Positions 662 through 51,541 of a stretch of DNA of 64,000 nt are shown in pieces. Position numbers and translations under genes: made by a program. Source of the DNA: Shigella phage phi25-307; sequence record MG589383; one strand, written 5' to 3'. Position 1 is the first letter of the stretch; every line of letters starts with the position of its first letter. The notes under the pieces were generated by a model. The model worked only from the letters and a program-made list of their open reading frames with translations, had not been told where the DNA came from and searched no databases.

Positions 662-2749
662 CTATCCTTGGACAAATTTAAACGGAACTGATTCTAAATC
701 CATTAAAGATGCTAACAATTTCAATCCTTTAGGAGCACTAGTTTTTTCTACAAATGAGGAGAACGATATCGGCTCATCTGATTCGATTTCACCCGTCATA
801 GCAACCACCTCACCTGTTTCCATGAGAACATCACCGTCGTAAATGACAGCTTCGTCCAACTGGTCCGAGGACATGACTTCAGCTTGAATAAATTTAAGGT
901 TGGATTCTAAACCTGCACCAGTGTCAGATGACGCATCTGTAATTTTATTTATCTGCAAGAGAATGCCTCTAGGCAAAATAATTTCTTGCTCATTAGGGTG
1001 ATTACTCAACTGTCCAGGATAAATCACGTTAACTTTATGGGCGCCATCAATAGCCCATCCAACGTTAACACGGATTTGGTCTGGTGCATGCATAGCTGTT
1101 CTTACTTGACTAGGAGAAATAGTAACACCTTCGTCATTATTGTCAATGTTAAGCTCTTTGCGAACTTCTTCAGGAGCAAGTCCAAGGGCAACGTTCTCTT
1201 TAAACCCACCGAAAATAATAGGAGCTAGTGAAGTGGAAACATAGTTTCTGAAGTAGAATACCTTATTTTTAACCATTGCTTCGTAAATAGGCATTCTGAT
1301 AGACTGAGCTCTATATAACGTTAGTCCTTCAGGTAAACGGTCTCCATTTAAAAACGCTGAATCAAGACCATCAATAGCGCGTTTAACTTCATCTTCATCT
1401 GCAACATCGTAAAAATCTGGTTTATAACGACCTAACAGCATATTATTGATATCGGTATACGCAGAAGAGGCATATTCACGAATAGCTCGTTTTTCAGCAA
1501 CAGAGTATTGATTAGGGACCCGATTCATTGTTATATTAAAGGTGCCTCTAGCCGATTCTCGTGCATAAGTATACATCACATTAGACAAGAACGCTGATTT
1601 ACGTTGTTTCCAAGTTTTTTCAGATACTTCAGCTAAAACGTCGTCAGCCAGTTGGAAATTATCACGTCTAAAATCTTCAAACCATTCGTCTTTAATAGAG
1701 TCTGCAATTTCATTTGCAGCTTCAACAAAAGCAGTTAATGCTTTAACAGATGTTGTTTTTTCAGTTTTAATTTTCTTAGCAAACTTTTCTAAAGTTGGCT
1801 TAATAACACTACCATAAGAAACTTCATCAGCAAATCTAAAGGATTCATCAATACGATTATAAATCTTATTTTCGATATCAGCAACTAAAGTGCCTTTTGC
1901 TGTGGACGATGCTTGGGCTAGTACGATTTCATATGCTTCAGGAAGTAATTCGGCTGTAGCTGGGCCACTAACTTCTTTAGCAGAATTTTCGTATTTCTGG
2001 AATAACTCACCTTCTTGTCGGTCAGCTTCTAAAGATTGACTTGCTGCAATAGCACGACGAGAAATTTTAGTACGAGCAATAACAGGCTTATCTTTACGTT
2101 TTTCTTCTACAGCAGCAATAGAACCAGCGATAGCCGTTTCTTTGGTGACCTTTTCGCCAGTCTTTTTACTCACATAAACTTCGCCAACATCAGAATCTAC
2201 TTTCGTGTACAACTCTGTGTTAATGTTAGGGATGCCTTTAATATCTTCAATGTTGGCATTTTTGCGAACCATCATCACATAGGTGTGTTTACCTGTGAAT
2301 TGATACATTGCCGACAATACTTTAAAACGACCACCGGTTTTAGTAGAAACTAAACGAGCAAGAAGAGTTTGAAGCTGCTGTCCGCGTCCTTTCAATTTCT
2401 TGGTAGGGAATCGGAATAGAACTGCATCCATACGAAGAGCTTTAACCTGTTCATATACTGTATTGAAAATGGTGTTGATTGCATCAATAGGAGCAGGACC
2501 AAGGCCATTTTTCAATTCAGCGAGATTGCCCTTTTCAGATAGACTCATAATAACAACATGAGCGTATTTGTCGCCAAGTTTAACTTGTTTTACAGCATCA
2601 CCTTCGGAAAGGTAAGAGAATAAGCGAACTACGATGTTTGTATCGATATCACCAATTTTCCAGACTTGTGGAACTTTAGCTTTAGGGTTCAAATTGACGA
2701 CAGGAAGACTGCCTTCAGATTCAAACACTTCATTTAATTGTTCAGACAT
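662..2749 (-). CDS. alt: Alt-like ADP-ribosyltransferase (head-packaged), 695 aa
   Basis: C-terminal ART motifs in order: R (LYRAQSIR), STS (YVSTSLAP), E-x-E (NEQEIILPRG); size close to T4 Alt (about 682 aa); position between gene 54 and ligase as in T4. Confidence 0.8.
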   Translation of the reverse strand: MSEQLNEVFESEGSLPVVNLNPKAKVPQVWKIGDIDTNIVVRLFSYLSEGDAVKQVKLGDKYAHVVIMSLSEKGNLAELKNGLGPAPIDAINTIFNTVYEQVKALRMDAVLFRFPTKKLKGRGQQLQTLLARLVSTKTGGRFKVLSAMYQFTGKHTYVMMVRKNANIEDIKGIPNINTELYTKVDSDVGEVYVSKKTGEKVTKETAIAGSIAAVEEKRKDKPVIARTKISRRAIAASQSLEADRQEGELFQKYENSAKEVSGPATAELLPEAYEIVLAQASSTAKGTLVADIENKIYNRIDESFRFADEVSYGSVIKPTLEKFAKKIKTEKTTSVKALTAFVEAANEIADSIKDEWFEDFRRDNFQLADDVLAEVSEKTWKQRKSAFLSNVMYTYARESARGTFNITMNRVPNQYSVAEKRAIREYASSAYTDINNMLLGRYKPDFYDVADEDEVKRAIDGLDSAFLNGDRLPEGLTLYRAQSIRMPIYEAMVKNKVFYFRNYVSTSLAPIIFGGFKENVALGLAPEEVRKELNIDNNDEGVTISPSQVRTAMHAPDQIRVNVGWAIDGAHKVNVIYPGQLSNHPNEQEIILPRGILLQINKITDASSDTGAGLESNLKFIQAEVMSSDQLDEAVIYDGDVLMETGEVVAMTGEIESDEPISFSSFVEKTSAPKGLKLLASLMDLESVPFKFVQG

Positions 2750-2784
2750 AGTGTTTTCCTTTTAGTAATAATTTATATTTATGC

Positions 2785-2805
2785 CAAAAAGAGCCCGAAG
2801 GCTCT
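2785..2805 (-). terminator. Intrinsic terminator (UUCG-loop hairpin plus U-run)
   Basis: AGAGCC-CGAA-GGCTCT hairpin at 2790-2805, followed on the minus strand by TTTTT; abuts the stop of ORF 2805..2993. Confidence 0.6.
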
Positions 2806-2993
2806 TAATCCACAATCGGGAGCAAAGTACGATAAACTTCAAAATTAGGGCCTTTTTCGTACCCATTAACGTTATCTACGAAAACCCGATACGAATTTTC
2901 ATTAGGAAAATCTAATATAATCTGAGAGCAAGAGGTGGAAACATCTCCACCATCCTTCTTAGCTACAATAACTGTTTCTAAATAAGCTTTCAT
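2805..2993 (-). CDS. Hypothetical protein, 62 aa
   Basis: Start trimmed to the ATG overlapping the ligase stop (TAATG at 2991-2995); ends at the terminator hairpin. Confidence 0.45.
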   Translation of the reverse strand: MKAYLETVIVAKKDGGDVSTSCSQIILDFPNENSYRVFVDNVNGYEKGPNFEVYRTLLPIVD

Positions 2994-4486
2994 TATAAAC
3001 CTGTCTGGGACCACGGTCCAAATACGTCTTCAAACGAATCCGCTTCTGTTTTATCAAAACGGAACCCTTTAATAATTGGAAGGAAAATACCTACAGTACC
3101 TTCACGGCCTTTAGAATGAACCCAACCATTACATTCACAATCAGCGATACGTCCAATTAATTTACCTTCACGAGCTTCGGTCATTAATCGTTCACGGTCT
3201 AAATCATGACGCTCGTCTAAAGGAATAAGAACCTTTACACCGTCAACTGTTTTATGAGTTGTATCTTTAAACCCTGAACCACAATCGGTTGTAATACGAC
3301 GACAACGTGATACGAGTTCGACACCACCTAATTTGTTAGGGTCTTTAGAGTGTTCATAGTATCCTACAACTTCTAAAGCGATATCAATAACTTCTTTAAA
3401 TTTAATTAGGTTCTTAGAGCGTTTGTTTTCCCAATATGAATCACGGTTTTTAAGGATAATACCTTCAAGACCTTGGTCAACATATTTTTTATAAACTACT
3501 TTAGCTTCGTCAAGATTACGAACTAACTGATTTTCAATTGGTTCAATTCGCTTAAAGCCTTCAGCCATATTTTCAAGAGCAGCAAAACGAACATCGTATT
3601 TCTGACCTTTAATTTTGCCGTCAGAATAGACTTCATCTAAAGGAACATAGTCCCAGGCTTGAAGAACCATACCTTCCGCTTCTTTAGGAGAAATAGTCCC
3701 TTGAAGAGATTTATTTGCTAAACCATTTGAAGTGCTACGGTCTGCAACTTGTACTTCTTCGGATTCTTCATTATCACCAAATAAGAACGACAGGTCATTT
3801 CCTGAGCTCACAGCCTTTTTAATATCGAATGAATGATAAACTAATTCACCGTCGATTAAAACCCCATTAGGGTGTCTTTCACGAGCTTCTTTAGTCATTT
3901 CCATTAGTTCATCCGCTAATAGAGTAAGACCATGGTATTCGTTACCAGCACGAGAAAAGAATTGAACACCATCATCGCGAACTTCAGCGAAACAACGAGC
4001 ACCATCTGCTTTTAATTGGGCAAATGCGGGCCATTTAATATTTTTAGTAATCAATTTCTCATCATATGCAGATGCTAACATCTGTGGTTGCAATTGAATA
4101 AGTCCAGGCCACACCTTATTCGCGATAGACACTGAAGCACCTACTTCAAGGTCGCGCATCATTACACGACGAAGGACTTCTACATCATCAGGTTTACCAT
4201 CAGCGATATAACCCATGAGCTCTTTAATTGCAGCATTACCGGTGAGTTTACGAGTGGCTAATGTGAACTCAATAAAATCCAACATGTCATCTAATTCAAG
4301 AAGACCATATGCTTGAGACCTTTCACCCGGTCCTGGCCATTTCTTAATATAATACTGGATACCACGTGCATATGTTAAACGATACACACGTTCAAGTAAT
4401 TTGTTGTCCTTATTTTTCTTAAGGATTTCTTGTTTTGTTTTAGTAGAACCGATCGCAGCTATTTGGTTTAAAATATCTAAAATCAT
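2993..4486 (-). CDS. 30: ATP-dependent DNA ligase, 497 aa
   Basis: Adenylation motif KADGAR; N-terminal region closely resembles T4 gp30 as remembered; size and position between alt and rIII match T4. Confidence 0.92.
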   Translation of the reverse strand: MILDILNQIAAIGSTKTKQEILKKNKDNKLLERVYRLTYARGIQYYIKKWPGPGERSQAYGLLELDDMLDFIEFTLATRKLTGNAAIKELMGYIADGKPDDVEVLRRVMMRDLEVGASVSIANKVWPGLIQLQPQMLASAYDEKLITKNIKWPAFAQLKADGARCFAEVRDDGVQFFSRAGNEYHGLTLLADELMEMTKEARERHPNGVLIDGELVYHSFDIKKAVSSGNDLSFLFGDNEESEEVQVADRSTSNGLANKSLQGTISPKEAEGMVLQAWDYVPLDEVYSDGKIKGQKYDVRFAALENMAEGFKRIEPIENQLVRNLDEAKVVYKKYVDQGLEGIILKNRDSYWENKRSKNLIKFKEVIDIALEVVGYYEHSKDPNKLGGVELVSRCRRITTDCGSGFKDTTHKTVDGVKVLIPLDERHDLDRERLMTEAREGKLIGRIADCECNGWVHSKGREGTVGIFLPIIKGFRFDKTEADSFEDVFGPWSQTGL

Positions 4487-44772: not shown

Positions 44773-46986
44773 TTATTTGGCCGCTTCCACGGCCTTCATG
44801 AATTTAACGATTTGAGCGACCTGTTCTTTGGAAAGAGTACCACGTCGTCCCATGTATTCTGACACAATATGATAATTGGTTTCGAATTCAATAACCATTT
44901 TATCATCATTATCGTAAGCATTATCTTTAAGCTTATCGAAAATTTTAGCACACAATTCTAACTTCTTATTCAGGTCTGTATTAGTAGCACCTGCGAATCG
45001 ATTCCATCCCCAACGATTATTTACTGTTGAGAGTTTTGCAAAGTCTTTACTGATTTCTTTGTTCTTAGAGCTAAAATACTTACTAAGGAAGTTAAGCTCT
45101 TCGTTACGAGTAATATGATTCAAATAAGGCTGTGCTCTACGACTTGGTGATACATACTCATCATAATCCACTTTGTCAATTAGCGTAATATAGTCATTAA
45201 TTGATTTTTCGAACAAGCATTCTACTTCACCAAGTTTACGAACTTTCTTAGCAATCTGTGGACGGACTACAGTGAACTCTTTAATACCTGACAAATCAGC
45301 AATACGAGTCAAGAAACTAGAATCATAGTTCAACCAACCTTTATCTGCGTCAAGACATTCGGCGTTAGAACGATTACGAATTACAACATAACCTTGAATC
45401 TCATCGGCTTTACCGGCCGGAATAAAGAGATCTTCTGATACCCAAACATCGTTTTCATTCTTAAAGAACCGATGAGCACTTGGGGATTTAGGACGAGGCT
45501 GCGATGAACGTTCTTTAACTTCAATCCACGGTTTAACTAATGCAAGAATTTCAGAGGTCTTATAAAATTTAAGGCTATCACCAGCGAAAATAACCTTTAA
45601 TCGTTCTAGAAGTTTCATTGCAACTTCATCTTCCGGATTAACGAATAATACGCTACTACCCCATCCGGAAGGAACCTTATCAACGAGTGTTGATGCATCG
45701 GTGGAAGTCAAAGCATCGTTCAGAGCACGCATCATTGGTACGCGGCCTTTCACATCGTCAATAACAATATCAATATGCTTACGACTAATACCTAGCAGGC
45801 TATTAATTGAAATAGTTGAAGACGAGCTTCCGCTTTCACGAATACGACGAAGTCGTGGATCTGAAACGATATCGTATACAACACCAAGGTTGCACCATTC
45901 AGGTCCCATTTTAAACCGTTTGTACAACTCAGAATAAGTTAGCTGTTCTTTAGAATATTTCAGTGATTCAATATTAGAACCGGCTTTTTCCATGTATTTA
46001 CGAGCAGAGTAACCAAGAGAATCGATTTCACGGAATACATGACGTGGATATTCACAATCAATCCATTTCTTAGAATCTTCAGCAAATAATTTTGCATCGA
46101 TTTCTGCAACACGTTTATGGATATTTGCTACTGTACGTTTATCAAATGACAATGCTTCACGAGACGGGGCTACATCTAGTTCACCCATAGGGAATTTAAT
46201 ATAAGCTGTAGTGCATCGCGTCATCATCCATGTTTGTTCTTTAATAACACTTCCGATTGGATATACAATACCACCATAAACAGCCATGATATTACCACGT
46301 TCACCCCATGGAGCTTCCTTGGCTAAATAAACATCATCGAATTCCGGGAAGTATTTGATATCTTTAACACCACGAACTTCTGCAATATCGCCGAGAGGAC
46401 GCATAACATATGCAATTTCAGATGCGAACTTTTCAAAATCTTCTGGGTTAACCGGTACAACTACTTCTACACCCGTACGGTCATCAGGGCCCATCTTATC
46501 TACAAAGGTTGGCTTAATCTGTGGACCGCTGTCATCTTGATAAATTACATAACCACGAACTTCACCGTTGTGATAAGACGTAAGGTTAAACGTATCGGTA
46601 TACGCTAGTGGAGCTTTAGAGCCGAGTCCGAATCCACCAATGAAATCGTTACTCGATGTTTTAGTTGAAGCAAAATATGAATTATAGATTCCTGGCTCTT
46701 CGTCATTACCTCGAATGGTGAAATCACTCATACCAGGACCAAAGTCTCGAACTACAAAACGTGGGTCTAAACGACCTGGAGCCTGAACAATAAACTTATC
46801 AGTGCAACCATTAAGAATTTGACCATCGATACAGTTTGTGATTAATTCGCGTACACAAGCCAATTCTTTGTTTGTATAAAGGTCATTAGACAAAATCTTA
46901 TAAACTTTGCTATTGCCTTGAATAGTAAATGCTGTGCTCTTATCGCCTGAACCAATAATCGTTTCTTTAGCCGTTTCAATAATCAT
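44773..46986 (-). CDS. rIIA: rIIA protein, 737 aa
   Basis: Size close to T4 rIIA (about 725 aa); N-terminal GHKL-ATPase-like region matching remembered T4 rIIA (ELITN.ID...FGPGMSDF, YNSYF.S.K..SNDFIGGFGLGSK). Confidence 0.95.
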   Translation of the reverse strand: MIIETAKETIIGSGDKSTAFTIQGNSKVYKILSNDLYTNKELACVRELITNCIDGQILNGCTDKFIVQAPGRLDPRFVVRDFGPGMSDFTIRGNDEEPGIYNSYFASTKTSSNDFIGGFGLGSKAPLAYTDTFNLTSYHNGEVRGYVIYQDDSGPQIKPTFVDKMGPDDRTGVEVVVPVNPEDFEKFASEIAYVMRPLGDIAEVRGVKDIKYFPEFDDVYLAKEAPWGERGNIMAVYGGIVYPIGSVIKEQTWMMTRCTTAYIKFPMGELDVAPSREALSFDKRTVANIHKRVAEIDAKLFAEDSKKWIDCEYPRHVFREIDSLGYSARKYMEKAGSNIESLKYSKEQLTYSELYKRFKMGPEWCNLGVVYDIVSDPRLRRIRESGSSSSTISINSLLGISRKHIDIVIDDVKGRVPMMRALNDALTSTDASTLVDKVPSGWGSSVLFVNPEDEVAMKLLERLKVIFAGDSLKFYKTSEILALVKPWIEVKERSSQPRPKSPSAHRFFKNENDVWVSEDLFIPAGKADEIQGYVVIRNRSNAECLDADKGWLNYDSSFLTRIADLSGIKEFTVVRPQIAKKVRKLGEVECLFEKSINDYITLIDKVDYDEYVSPSRRAQPYLNHITRNEELNFLSKYFSSKNKEISKDFAKLSTVNNRWGWNRFAGATNTDLNKKLELCAKIFDKLKDNAYDNDDKMVIEFETNYHIVSEYMGRRGTLSKEQVAQIVKFMKAVEAAK

Positions 46987-46998
46987 ATTTTTCTCTCA

Positions 46999-47199
46999 TC
47001 ACAAGTTACGTTTAAAAATTTCTGCTACTTCAAGAAGTTCTTCTTTAGTAGCTGTATCGGTTTGTATTTTATATCGAATTTCCTTAAAGCGTTCTTTAAA
47101 GGCTTCAGCTGATTCGATATCAAAAAATCTTTGGATAAGCCGGAATTCCCGGAGCACAGCTTTATCAAAAAGTTCCAAGTCCACGTTATATGTTCTCAT
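46999..47199 (-). CDS. Hypothetical protein, 66 aa (rIIA.1 position)
   Basis: ORF directly upstream of rIIA. Confidence 0.5.
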   Translation of the reverse strand: MRTYNVDLELFDKAVLREFRLIQRFFDIESAEAFKERFKEIRYKIQTDTATKEELLEVAEIFKRNL

Positions 47200-48404: not shown

Positions 48405-48436
48405 TTAAAATTAAAATGAAGCTCCCGAAGGAGCTT
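48405..48436 (-). terminator. Intrinsic terminator overlapping the HNH endonuclease stop codon
   Basis: AAGCUCC-UUCG-GGAGCUU hairpin (48419-48436) followed by CAUUUUAAUUUU on the minus strand. Confidence 0.6.
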
Positions 48437-49232
48437 AGGACATCCAACACATTTTATAACCTTTGCAGGTTCTGTTAGGATTATTTAATGCTTTCAATAT
48501 ATTAGAAGACCCTATATCTAAATACTCCCTTAATTCATAAAGATAGTTAAAATCAATAGTTTCACCTGTTTTTACACTTGTGATTCTTATAGGCCTTCTT
48601 TCATATTTAGATTTATACAACTCTCTAGTCTTAGCTTTAGTTTCTTCTGACCTAGGAGTGTATGGTTTAAATCCTTTTGTTTTAAATGTTTCCATTCTTG
48701 ATTTAGTTATTTTATCCTGGTGTTCTTTTGTTTTTACAGGTGCTTTTCGCCCATTCTCCCAAGATAACTTGTTGGCCTGTATTATTTTATCTATTGCTTC
48801 TTGCGTATGAGTTTTACCATAAAATGGATTTAATTCGCCTATACGTTGTGAAGCAATATGTGACATTAATTCTCTTGTTGCTTTAGTATGTTTTTTACCT
48901 TTAAATGGGTTGCCATTTTTAGCAATCCATTCTTTCATAAATCTAGAGTGCTCTTTAGAGAATTCTTGTTTAAGCCAATCATAATCTCTAGAATTTCTAG
49001 CTCCCATGTAAAAAGCTCTAATAGCCATAAGCATAGAACGGTTCTTATGAATTTTATAAAGCAATAAATGGGCGATAAAATGCTCTCTAGGGGTCATTTT
49101 AACTAGATTTGATTTAGCATTACTCCCACCCATAGATTTAGGCAAAATATGGTGAGTTTCAGTATAATTAGGAATAGTGCTGCGGTTTTTAGCCGCAGCG
49201 ATAAGTTTATCATAAATTTTACGATAATTCAT
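48435..49232 (-). CDS. HNH homing endonuclease (Mob-like), 265 aa
   Basis: HNH motif TETHHILPKSMGGSN...NLVKMTPREHFIAH and repeated NPF(K/Y)GK.HT NUMOD-like motifs; start overlaps the gene 39 stop (TAATG). Confidence 0.8.
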   Translation of the reverse strand: MNYRKIYDKLIAAAKNRSTIPNYTETHHILPKSMGGSNAKSNLVKMTPREHFIAHLLLYKIHKNRSMLMAIRAFYMGARNSRDYDWLKQEFSKEHSRFMKEWIAKNGNPFKGKKHTKATRELMSHIASQRIGELNPFYGKTHTQEAIDKIIQANKLSWENGRKAPVKTKEHQDKITKSRMETFKTKGFKPYTPRSEETKAKTRELYKSKYERRPIRITSVKTGETIDFNYLYELREYLDIGSSNILKALNNPNRTCKGYKMCWMS

Positions 49233-51052
49233 TATCCTAGCATCCAATCTTTACGGAGTTCAGGGTCGTTACCCATGAGCATTTCAAATAGTTCTTTCCA
49301 ATTTTCAGGAAGTTTAACTACGTCGTACACAGGGTTTTGAATCATTTCTTTATATTCATCCCGCTGAAGTGAGCCCAATCCCTTGATGTATCGAATACTA
49401 TGCTTAGGCAGTGTATCTTTGGCTTCTTCATACTCAGCTACAGTATAAAACCATTTTTGAGTTTTGCCAATTTGTGCAATAATTACAGGCGTTTTAACAA
49501 AGCGAATACGTCCTTGTTCAAACAATTCAGGCCAATTACTAAAGAAAGCAAGCAAAGCCGGATAAATACTTCCAAGACCGTCATGATCGGCATCGGTCAT
49601 AATTGCAATATTACGATAGTTCGTATTCTCTGCCTTTTCACCAAGAATAAGACCTGTGATAGCACAGATATCAAAGAGCTCTTTGTTCTTCATCATATCA
49701 GCATATGACATACCCCAGCTATTCATCACCTTACCACGTAATGGGAATCCACCGTGTAGTTCACGGTCACGAACATCAATGAGATAACCAATTGCCGAAT
49801 CACCTTCTGTTAAAAACAATGTCGTATCTGCATCTTTACCACATTGGTTAGCTTTAATATGCTTATGAACCTTAGCTTTAGTTGCCTTTTTAGCTGCTTT
49901 AGTTTCTGCAGCCTTTTCTGCTGCCAATTTACGAGCTAATGCTGCTTCAACAATAGGCATAATCAAAGCTTCATTTTTAAGAAGTGCCTGAGCAATTTTC
50001 TTAGCATCTAATTGGATATGATTACGAATATCACCATACGTTGACGTTAAACGTTCTTTAGTCTGAGAATCAAAACGCATGTTGCTCATGTCTCTAATAA
50101 ACATCAACATTGTGAGGCATTCTTTAACACGAGCTTTAGTGACTTCAATACCCTTATATTTCTTTTTAATACCGGGCAAAAGATGTTCGCAGATATCATC
50201 CATTACACATTCAACATGATGACCACCATTTTTAGTATGGATGTTATTCACATAAGTTAAATGACGGAAGCCATCTGGTGATGTTGTGAATGCTATAGAG
50301 ACTTTATCATTTTCTTGAATGATGTTATCTTCGCCAAATTGTTTAGCAAATCGTTTAAAATTACCATCAACCTTTTTACCATTAAATGTGAACTTGATAT
50401 CAGGATAAACGACTGCCAATGTTTGAAGACGGTCTAAAGTAATATCTAAATAAATTTGAGATAAATTATGCTCTTCAAATGAAGAGAAATCAGGAGTGAA
50501 GATTACTTTAGTGCCTTTACCTTTAGATTTCTTAGAAGACCATGATTTGTTTTCCATTCCGTTTGAACAGTTAACAGTGATTTCATTTTCGCCATCTGAC
50601 GTGATGCCTGTAAACAACGTAGAGAAGATATTAGTTAAACTACTCCCGACGCCGTTCATACCACCAGTCTTGCGTTCAGAGTCATCACCAAAGTTACCAC
50701 CGGCCTTTGGAATAGTCCAGGCCGCTACAGGCCCAGGAATTTGTTCACCTGTTTGGTCGGTAACTAAACCTTGAGGAATACCACGTCCGTTATCTTCCAC
50801 TGAGACTTGATTATTTTTAATTTGCACATCAATTTTATTTGCAAACTTAAATGATGTACGAATAGCTTCATCAACCGAGTTGTCAATAATCTCATCGATT
50901 AATTTAACAAGACCAGGAACATATTCAACTTGTTGATATTTACCAAACAAAAAACGCTCATGGGCTTCTTTAGCCGAAGAACCAATATACATGCCACTGC
51001 GTTTCTTAATATGTTCTACATCTGACAATACCTTAATTTCATTTTTAATCAT
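49232..51052 (-). CDS. 39: DNA topoisomerase II large subunit, single fused ORF equivalent to T4 39 plus 60, 606 aa
   Basis: GyrB-like ATPase N-terminus (HIKKRSGMYIGS, VDEAIR...DNGRGIP) and TOPRIM region in one continuous frame. Confidence 0.92.
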   Translation of the reverse strand: MIKNEIKVLSDVEHIKKRSGMYIGSSAKEAHERFLFGKYQQVEYVPGLVKLIDEIIDNSVDEAIRTSFKFANKIDVQIKNNQVSVEDNGRGIPQGLVTDQTGEQIPGPVAAWTIPKAGGNFGDDSERKTGGMNGVGSSLTNIFSTLFTGITSDGENEITVNCSNGMENKSWSSKKSKGKGTKVIFTPDFSSFEEHNLSQIYLDITLDRLQTLAVVYPDIKFTFNGKKVDGNFKRFAKQFGEDNIIQENDKVSIAFTTSPDGFRHLTYVNNIHTKNGGHHVECVMDDICEHLLPGIKKKYKGIEVTKARVKECLTMLMFIRDMSNMRFDSQTKERLTSTYGDIRNHIQLDAKKIAQALLKNEALIMPIVEAALARKLAAEKAAETKAAKKATKAKVHKHIKANQCGKDADTTLFLTEGDSAIGYLIDVRDRELHGGFPLRGKVMNSWGMSYADMMKNKELFDICAITGLILGEKAENTNYRNIAIMTDADHDGLGSIYPALLAFFSNWPELFEQGRIRFVKTPVIIAQIGKTQKWFYTVAEYEEAKDTLPKHSIRYIKGLGSLQRDEYKEMIQNPVYDVVKLPENWKELFEMLMGNDPELRKDWMLG

Positions 51053-51100: not shown

Positions 51101-51115
51101 AAAGGGCCGAAGCCC
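51101..51115 (-). terminator. Intrinsic terminator (GGGC-UUCG-GCCC plus UUUUUG)
   Basis: Short GC hairpin with UUCG loop directly after the stop of ORF 51116..51541. Confidence 0.5.
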
Positions 51116-51541
51116 TTATTTAAATTTAATTTTCTGAAGTGCATCAATTGCAGCCAAACGCCCTTGTTCACTTTTAACTGTAATGACCACATCGCCTGAT
51201 ACGATCACCGAACCATCAACAAATTCTATAGAGCCTTTTTTGAAATCGACAGATGTATCTGGTTCCGGAACTTCTTCAAAGAATTTAAATTCTGCACCAT
51301 AAAGCAGAATATCACCTTGCATACTATGAATAGTTCGGCCATAATCGCCTACGGCTTCTACAGCAATCACAGAAACGCCGTAACCAATCATCTCTTCCAC
51401 AATAAAATCTTTGGACAATAAAGTAGTATGCAGATTAGTATTAAGACGTTTACCAGTCGTATTAAGAATTCTCAAGAAATTATCTTCCTGTCCTTTGATA
51501 ATACGATATTTCTTACCAACTTCAAAACCTTTAAAAGCCAT
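51116..51541 (-). CDS. Hypothetical protein, 141 aa
   Basis: ORF upstream of gene 39. Confidence 0.55.
   Translation of the reverse strand: MAFKGFEVGKKYRIIKGQEDNFLRILNTTGKRLNTNLHTTLLSKDFIVEEMIGYGVSVIAVEAVGDYGRTIHSMQGDILLYGAEFKFFEEVPEPDTSVDFKKGSIEFVDGSVIVSGDVVITVKSEQGRLAAIDALQKIKFK

Follow-up and report, generated by a model that had tools for sequence, protein, structure and literature searches.

In Shigella phage phi25-307 (MG589383), a 265-aa open reading frame (ORF) directly after the topoisomerase gene 39 is most probably a homing endonuclease gene (HEG) of the Mob family, free-standing and promoter-less, that has entered gene 39 within its last codons. The 64,000-nt stretch analysed here, called the window, belongs to a T4-like phage (Straboviridae), and its sequence in this region is ~98% identical to that of the Mosigvirus phages SQ17, p000v and phiE142. 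Comparison with related genomes indicates that the endonuclease gene is, or recently was, mobile and that it has recently spread between two phage genera, Mosigvirus and Tequatrovirus. The element already carries the label "homing endonuclease" in GenBank records and is a selfish gene of an ordinary kind. The locus shows, to the nucleotide, the low-cost entry of such a gene into the end of an essential one: the cassette donates a new stop codon and a ribosome-binding site and captures the old stop and its hairpin, at a cost of about nil. It also points to recent passage of DNA between Mosigvirus and Tequatrovirus despite their different DNA hypermodifications and their reported partial genetic isolation.

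Insertion within the last codons of gene 39

The ATG of the endonuclease ORF (49232-49230) begins with the A that closes the gene 39 stop codon, GGA TAA running on as TAATG at position 49232. An ORF finder opens the frame at an upstream TTG; the ATG is favoured because the N-terminus that it gives, MNYRKIY, matches the starts of T4 MobB-E. Against relatives with an empty site the exact difference is 800 bp (49240..48441; junctions in F2, RB69, JK45 and NHEP36), bounded by 6-bp direct repeats of TGGATG (49246-49241 and 48446-48441). Where the insertion is lacking, gene 39 ends ...GAA TGG ATG TCC TAA GCTCCTTCGGGAGCTT (F2, RB69, JK45). In the window it ends ...GAT TGG ATG CTA GGA TAA TG.., and the endonuclease ORF ends ...TGT TGG ATG TCC TAA GCTCC..., its last three codons and stop being identical to those of gene 39 in the HEG-less relatives. 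The cassette swaps the final codon of gene 39 for Leu-Gly-stop, giving a gp39 tail of ...DWMLG* as opposed to ...EWMS*, and the added codons, CUA GGA, contain an AGGA Shine-Dalgarno motif 2 nt before the endonuclease AUG. Two related endonucleases from other phages, P0003 and P0004, end ...GFKW(K/R)Y.. where the window protein has ...GYKMCWMS; these endings fit a C-terminus of the window protein that would have been rebuilt at the junction.

The stop codon of the ORF (TAA, 48437..48435) is followed by GCTCC TTCG GGAGC TT. A terminator scan placed at 48436..48419 a hairpin with a stem of 7 bp (AAGCTCC/GGAGCTT), the loop TTCG and the tail CATTTTAATT; both A's of the stop pair within the stem, and the hairpin is present in the centroid fold. 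The features of an intrinsic terminator are there (four GC pairs in the 7-bp stem, a UUCG loop and the tail CAUUUUAAUU), the U-tract being interrupted, and the hairpin is annotated as "terminator" in fPS-90. The same hairpin stands directly after the gene 39 stop in the HEG-less phages F2, RB69 and JK45. Because they share the arrangement, the stop within the hairpin was inherited from gene 39 and predates the insertion; annotators meeting a "stop codon inside a terminator" here are looking at a legacy of gene 39 and no special feature of the endonuclease.

The original prediction, made from the letters of the window, had placed an HNH endonuclease gene at 48435-49232, whose start overlaps the stop of gene 39 and whose own stop falls inside a UUCG hairpin. 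The coordinates agree exactly with an ORF on the minus strand, the overlap is the TAATG at 49232, and the two A's of the stop do lie in the stem. The placement "downstream of gene 39" has to be revised: the 800 bp sit inside the last codons of gene 39, and the stop and hairpin were originally those of gene 39.

What signals would express the gene? The T4 late-promoter motif TATAAATA was not found near it, and sigma-70-like matches were not above chance (12 found, 16.1 expected). The gene presents itself as a free-standing cassette for which no promoter of its own was found, its start overlapping the upstream ORF as in the Mob family. According to PMC2988022, the known mob genes form cassettes that lack promoters, and target nicking is described for MobA and MobE. 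The UAAUGA overlap of mobE with the nrdA stop has been proposed to give low-level translational coupling (PMC2988022). The first ~130 nt of the endonuclease mRNA fold better than shuffled sequences (z -3.2), with UUCCU at about +60 as a possible partner of the AGGA; the minimum free energy structure accounts for only 0.9% of the ensemble, and occlusion of the ribosome-binding site by such 5' folding would be a weak idea. Within the coding sequence, codons 11-18 form a perfect 7-bp hairpin with no U-tract after it (GCUGCGG-CUAAAAA-CCGCAGC, minus strand, 49181-49201). Internal 5' hairpins or terminators are known from mobE and segF (PMC2988022 for the terminators).

Carriers, empty sites and flanking tracts

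A tblastn search found copies at a minimum of 98.9% identity in 26 records (21 distinct phages), always abutting gene 39, and the next full-length matches are no more than 36% identical. The gene is absent from most close relatives, in keeping with its earlier description as accessory: 140 records cover at least 80% of the 4.2-kb region, and the top 18 (~13%) contain it. The other rows inspected among these 140 align in two pieces at 81% coverage, short by about the length of the HEG. Precise empty sites were found in RB69, F2, JK45 and NHEP36.

Tracts of flanking identity centred on the endonuclease gene occur in three backgrounds (negative positions lie in gene 39). The Tequatrovirus phages fPS-90, F1, BYEP01 and FL12 diverge from the window by ~20-30%, at ~10-20 mismatches/50 nt, along gene 39 until about -420, and show 0-1 mismatches/50 nt from there through the endonuclease gene. 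In CJY920, also a Tequatrovirus, the tract begins at about -170 to -200 and is shorter than in fPS-90 and F1, and the divergent Mosigvirus AV115 is identical to the window from about -720 to about +1100. The right ends of the tracts lie at +880 or +1100. Set against the HEG-less Tequatrovirus phages G4507 and SP21535, the pattern is reversed.

Six Tequatrovirus genomes carry the gene. All five that were aligned (fPS-90, F1, BYEP01, CJY920 and FL12) have the Mosigvirus hairpin and spacer after the HEG, and then the first 49 nt (16 codons) of ORF003c, a gene that Tequatrovirus otherwise lacks. At that point a microhomology, CTGACC, joins TTCGTAAAGAATGGATGAGCCAGTAG, a copy, now displaced, of the gene 39/60 tail that belongs to the recipient itself. 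The presence in these carriers of a Mosigvirus hairpin, an ORF003c fragment and their own displaced tail therefore sets the direction of transfer as Mosigvirus to Tequatrovirus. The right junction is the product expected from break repair with homology on one side only.

Gene 39 itself differs from that of RB69, F2 and JK45 at 0-2 positions/50 nt, two diverged patches excepted (Table 1). Patch 2 is made up of the last ~42 nt before the insertion, in a background of 1-2% divergence, and a fully conserved 41-nt block separates it from patch 1. The patches may protect carriers against self-cleavage, or they may be co-converted polymorphisms of the donor lineage.

The predicted protein, its mode of spread and the alternatives

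The 265-aa protein matches PHROG_655 "homing endonuclease" at 1.3e-55 and Pfam NUMOD3, with two repeats, at 36.5 bits (cut-off 20.4; 4.6e-09). Its catalytic motif reads H27-H28...N42...H51...H55; no variation is seen at N42, H51 or H55 across 42 aligned homologues, and conservation reaches at least 90% at H27 and H28. By BLASTP, the N-terminal domain is 60.6% identical to the intact MobA of phage HY01 over the first 71 aa, 52.6% to T4 MobE over 76 aa and 44.8% to T4 MobB over 116 aa (2e-26); the window endonuclease is 37.9% identical to T4 MobD over 169 aa, and MobC also matches. The conserved part comprises the N-terminal ~75-115 residues (MNYRKIYDKLI...ETHHILPKSMGG...NLV.MTPREHFIAHLLLYKI), and the nuclease-domain motif of the Mob family (MNYxKIY...E-HHI-P...GG...NLV-LT--EH--AH-LL-KI) is found in the window protein. 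The C-terminal halves of the T4 Mob proteins and HY01 MobA cannot be aligned with that of the window protein, an IENR1-like tail excepted (..SSNILKAL......KGYK..W..), which aligns with the tails of MobB and MobC. An AlphaFold2 model has a mean predicted local distance difference test (pLDDT) of 86.9 and a beta-beta-alpha core at residues 25-62, whose strands (25-28 and 43-46) and helix (48-62) exceed a pLDDT of 90. Its top fold match in the PDB is I-HmuI (probability 1.0), followed lower down by the DNA-binding domain of I-TevI and the HNH domains of Cas8-HNH and McrA. Judged by its sequence, the protein is a Mob-type HNH/NUMOD3 endonuclease of the T4 Mob family; a Mob-like HNH enzyme with NUMOD-like repeats is also what had been proposed before any search.

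How would such a gene spread? It would share the transcript of gene 39, and coupling or re-initiation at UAAUG would give a low level of translation, while the hairpin would continue to serve as the transcript's 3' end or stabiliser, which would make the insertion cheap for the phage. In a mixed infection, gene 39 alleles that lack the HEG would be nicked or cut by the enzyme close to their 3' end, as the Mob family and the comparative pattern suggest, and the recombination-dependent repair of the phage would then copy the HEG together with flanking donor sequence. Carriers would be protected by the insertion itself, by the substitutions clustered in the last ~45 nt of gene 39, or by both. The break point may tentatively be put ~26 nt ahead of the stop codon of gene 39, near GAC^CTTCGTAAAG, because the displaced tails of the Tequatrovirus carriers and of a contig with a related endonuclease, P0002, begin at the same TTCGTAAAG.

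Several observations weigh against this picture. Mosaic tracts could in principle come from ordinary recombination, and the nuclease activity and target site of the 265-aa protein are themselves predictions. The Pfam models HNH, HNH_4 and HNH_5 score ~16-17 bits (cut-offs 21-27), and the fold match to I-HmuI is weak by its E-value (7.6e-3). A sequence search of the PDB gave only McrA, at E 0.38, and a search of NCBIfam gave no firm match. Because these matches are weak or below threshold, the identification rests on PHROGs, NUMOD3, the comparison with T4 Mob proteins and the model. Of the two domain types first proposed, profile searches recovered the NUMOD repeats above the cut-off, but the HNH core stayed below it at ~16 bits. 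The ORF is intact in 24 of the 26 records and frameshifted in AV118 and ECO111 5-P: in AV118 (OR352948.1) a 1-nt insertion in an A-run (A6 to A7) at ~636 splits it, and the copy of ECO111 5-P (OR844765.1) aligns in two pieces, either of which could be gene decay or a homopolymer sequencing error. The Tequatrovirus carriers retain an intact CTTCGTAAAGAATGGATG downstream, so the recognition site must extend further upstream.

To these is added a set of HEG-less alleles that bear HEG-linked substitutions, in NHEP36, TH12, LF82-4, OLB35 and, for patch 1, SP21535. Because HEG-less genomes share them, the patches may be ordinary lineage polymorphisms and not immunity changes. NHEP36 (PQ511151.1, ~2620-2640) combines a precise empty site, ..GAT TGG ATG TCC TAA, with HEG-linked substitutions upstream. 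This allele may have arisen when the HEG was cleanly lost across the 6-bp repeat, or it may be ancestral in the donor lineage. In TH12, LF82-4 and OLB35 (~2630-2660) the HEG-linked flank leads into a gp39 end of WMLG* (CTT GGT TAA), with 19 extra nt (..TTGATAGATG) before TCCTAA and the hairpin. BLAST finds the TH12-like allele in phiEC1, TH58 and CCU7 as well, all of them HEG-less genomes of "Mosigvirus utam" type. A simple deletion remnant of the present HEG is a less likely source of the 19 nt: two deletions would be required, and two synonymous positions differ. The segment is more likely the footprint of an older insertion and loss, or a pre-insertion allele. The Shigella phage SP21535, a HEG-less Tequatrovirus, matches patch 1 with 0-2 mismatches in a segment that begins ~170 nt and ends ~70 nt short of the gene 39 stop, whereas the final ~66 nt of the gene are of its own type; this may be a partial co-conversion tract without the endonuclease gene.

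Could the gene be a mere resident, no longer mobile or never self-mobilising, whose patchiness and tracts come from ordinary homologous recombination? T4-like phages recombine heavily, T4's own mobA is a pseudogene, and both the HEG-less genomes with HEG-linked flanks and the two apparently frameshifted copies are what such a history would leave behind. We nevertheless consider it unlikely. Copies that are 99-100% identical sit next to a gene that diverges by 10-30% between backgrounds, and the identity tracts are centred on the endonuclease gene with differing left ends. The right junction in Tequatrovirus is illegitimate, with its 6-bp microhomology and duplicated target tail, unlike a homologous crossover, and nearly all copies of the ORF are intact.

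Two further accounts start from what the gene or its hairpin might do for the phage. The nuclease might mainly serve the phage, excluding competitors or their markers by cutting the topoisomerase gene of co-infecting relatives or acting elsewhere in DNA metabolism, with homing as a by-product. Its target would be an essential replication gene, the HNH enzymes I-HmuI/II confer a competitive advantage according to the passage of PMC2988022 that cites them, and a Mob sub-lineage has been kept at the gene 39 site across diverged clades. Such long-term association with a site is, however, equally expected of a homing element, most close relatives do without the gene, and sequence alone cannot tell this account from plain selfish homing; we give it only a slim chance. 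Slimmer again, close to negligible, is the chance that the endonuclease gene has its stop in the hairpin as a regulatory device in its own right, for instance for translation-termination coupling or for control of the transferase gene that follows. The pairing of the two stop A's and the internal terminators known in mobE and segF (PMC2988022) would suit such a device, but the arrangement already closes gene 39 in RB69, F2 and JK45, and P0003 and P0004 end differently. A homing endonuclease gene that entered the end of gene 39 remains the reading that we prefer.

Relatives at the gene 39 3' end and neighbouring genes

A search of 5.8 billion proteins returned only three full-length relatives above 40% identity, P0002 (45%), P0003 (45%) and P0004 (41%). 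Each is encoded on another T4-like contig, at the 3' end of the gene 39 homologue found there. P0002, next to a gp39 77% identical to that of the window, probably has as its start codon a GTG that overlaps the TGA of gene 39 and ends in a displaced gene 39 tail, ...TATGC TTCGTAAAGAGTGGATGAATCAATAG. P0003 (gp39 72% identical) starts 35 nt past the stop, beyond a hairpin, and P0004 (gp39 43% identical) has an ATGA start that overlaps the stop. These elements might form a distinct Mob sub-lineage specialised for the gene 39 3' end, independent of the mid-gene site of MobA and sharing a break point ~26 nt upstream, one member of which would be sweeping from Mosigvirus into Tequatrovirus with a chimeric gp39 C-terminus and an arabinosyltransferase fragment; we regard this as evenly poised between true and false. 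If true, it would mean a crossing from the arabinosylated-cytosine Mosigvirus into the glucosyl-hydroxymethylcytosine Tequatrovirus, groups regarded as genetically isolated. The record also yields a testable prediction of the cleavage site.

The Shewanella phage Thanatos-1 (30% identity) was considered as a further same-site member and rejected: its HNH gene (2501-3313) is flanked on either side by a fragment annotated "DNA topoisomerase large subunit"; it thus splits the topoisomerase gene and is of MobA type. The cytosine of this phage is pentose-modified. P0006 (40% identity) adjoins PrkA/DUF444 genes and was set aside.

Among known systems the closest in architecture is T4 mobE, between nrdA and nrdB, and the closest by host gene is the MobA/bypass element. 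MobE shares the N-terminal HNH domain of the family (52.6% over 76 aa), and its gene is likewise a promoter-less cassette after an essential gene of nucleotide or DNA metabolism, with a one-nucleotide UAAUG overlap (PMC2988022), a sporadic distribution and spread together with flanking sequence. Unlike mobE, the window element has topoisomerase gene 39 and not nrdA/nrdB as its host, lies within the last codons of the upstream gene, re-using its stop and hairpin, and encodes a C-terminal DNA-binding region that is longer and includes two NUMOD3 repeats and an IENR1-like tail; its activity is predicted from sequence. The MobA element of T4 and HY01 has the same host gene and family (60.6% over the first 71 aa) and a comparable junction, with a new C-terminal extension on the upstream topoisomerase ORF, an overlap and a short stretch of target displaced or replaced (bioRxiv 10.1101/2022.08.31.505936). 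MobA inserts mid-gene at D490/G491, splits 39/60 and needs a 50-nt translational bypass cassette (bioRxiv 10.1101/2022.08.31.505936), whereas gene 39 in the window is whole, the insertion lies at its extreme 3' end and a bypass is absent. Identity with the MobA element was accordingly rejected, gene 39 being a single 606-aa ORF with its insertion at the last codons and not at D490/G491. I-HmuI of Bacillus phage SPO1 (PDB 1U3E) resembles the model of the window protein in its N-terminal beta-beta-alpha-metal HNH domain and NUMOD-type helical DNA-binding modules; it differs in being intron-encoded, and it is 18% identical over 88 aligned columns.

Both kinds of element are present in CJY920 (PQ349265.1). 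An intact MobA element (1170-1985), 99.6% identical to HY01 MobA, splits 39/60, and the 3'-end endonuclease (2501-3295) lies 515 nt beyond it in the same topoisomerase gene. Because they coexist, the two are different elements, each with a site of its own.

In the window, gene 39, the endonuclease ORF, a gene for a 366-aa protein, rIIA.1, rIIA and rIIB follow each other in this order, all on the minus strand (Table 1). Gene 39 is a single ORF spanning the GyrB, Toprim and C-terminal domains.

Table 1. Features of the gene 39 to rIIA region, in positions of the 64,000-nt window
Feature	Position	Strand	Remarks
Gene 39	49232..51052	minus	undivided (T2/RB69-type) DNA topoisomerase II large subunit, 606 aa
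Diverged patch 1 of gene 39	49333..49382	minus	-142..-93; 12-14 substitutions/50 nt vs RB69, F2, JK45
Diverged patch 2 of gene 39	49241..49282	minus	-42..-1; 9-10 substitutions vs RB69, F2, JK45
800-bp insertion	48441..49240	minus	brings CTA GGA TAA and the HNH ORF up to ...TGT TGGATG
Predicted Mob-family HNH homing endonuclease ORF	48435..49232	minus	265 aa and stop
HNH catalytic core	49056..49169	minus	YTETHHILP...SNLV...REHFIAH; residues ~22-59; predicted beta-beta-alpha
Two NUMOD3 DNA-binding repeats	48780..48917	minus	GNPFKGKKHT..., LNPFYGKTHT...; residues ~106-151; Pfam NUMOD3
Displaced original gene 39 tail	48435..48446	minus	TGG ATG TCC TAA; last three HNH codons and stop
Hairpin	48409..48436	minus	AAGCUCC-UUCG-GGAGCUU then CAUUUUAAUUUU; ancestral gene 39 3' hairpin, terminator or mRNA-stabiliser type
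RB69 ORF003c orthologue, 366 aa	47292..48392	minus	outside the mobile element; putative GT-B DNA arabinosyltransferase
rIIA.1	46999..47199	minus	
rIIA	44773..46986	minus	

The 366-aa protein is identical at 361 of its 366 residues to RB69p003 (ORF003c), which holds the same position between 39 and rIIA.1. It matches PHROG_8302; searches of Pfam and NCBIfam gave no match. The product of RB69 ORF003c has been proposed as a GT-B arabinosyltransferase (PMC6024577), published models giving a GT-B fold, and it is listed as a putative "beta-arabinosyltransferase 2" in a 2026 study (PMC13326640). The DNA of RB69 carries arabinosylated 5-hydroxycytosine (PMC13326640). ORF003c is annotated in the HEG-less Mosigvirus-type relatives inspected (F2, JK45, RB69, LF82-4, OLB35 and NHEP36) and absent from Tequatrovirus.

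The original prediction had joined the endonuclease gene and this glycosyltransferase-like neighbour in one accessory island between gene 39 and rIIA. The two do not form one island because their histories are separate: the HEG moved into Tequatrovirus without ORF003c, a gene conserved in its genus, while the endonuclease gene is found in ~13% of records. Comparison of the interval upholds the remainder of the idea, since it is variable across T4-like genera and the HEG is accessory; ORF003c is not. Between 39 and rIIA.1 there are 54 nt in SP21535, mobA/60.1/60 in T4 and other genes in metagenomic relatives. Between its ORF003c homologue and rIIA.1, JK45 has an extra 136-aa ORF (1893-2303) that the window lacks and for which no Pfam match was found.

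Just upstream of gene 39 the window has another UUCG-loop hairpin (51102-51117; AAGGGC-TTCG-GCCCTT, then TTTGC), and two tetraloop hairpins therefore bracket the gene. In AV115 a 227-aa NUMOD3 protein with three repeats (1002-1685) overlaps the start of gene 39, and in the metagenomic contig L023 a 235-aa protein with an Endonuclease_7 domain (1144-1851) lies directly upstream of it. Mobile nuclease genes appear to occur on both sides of gene 39 in some phages.

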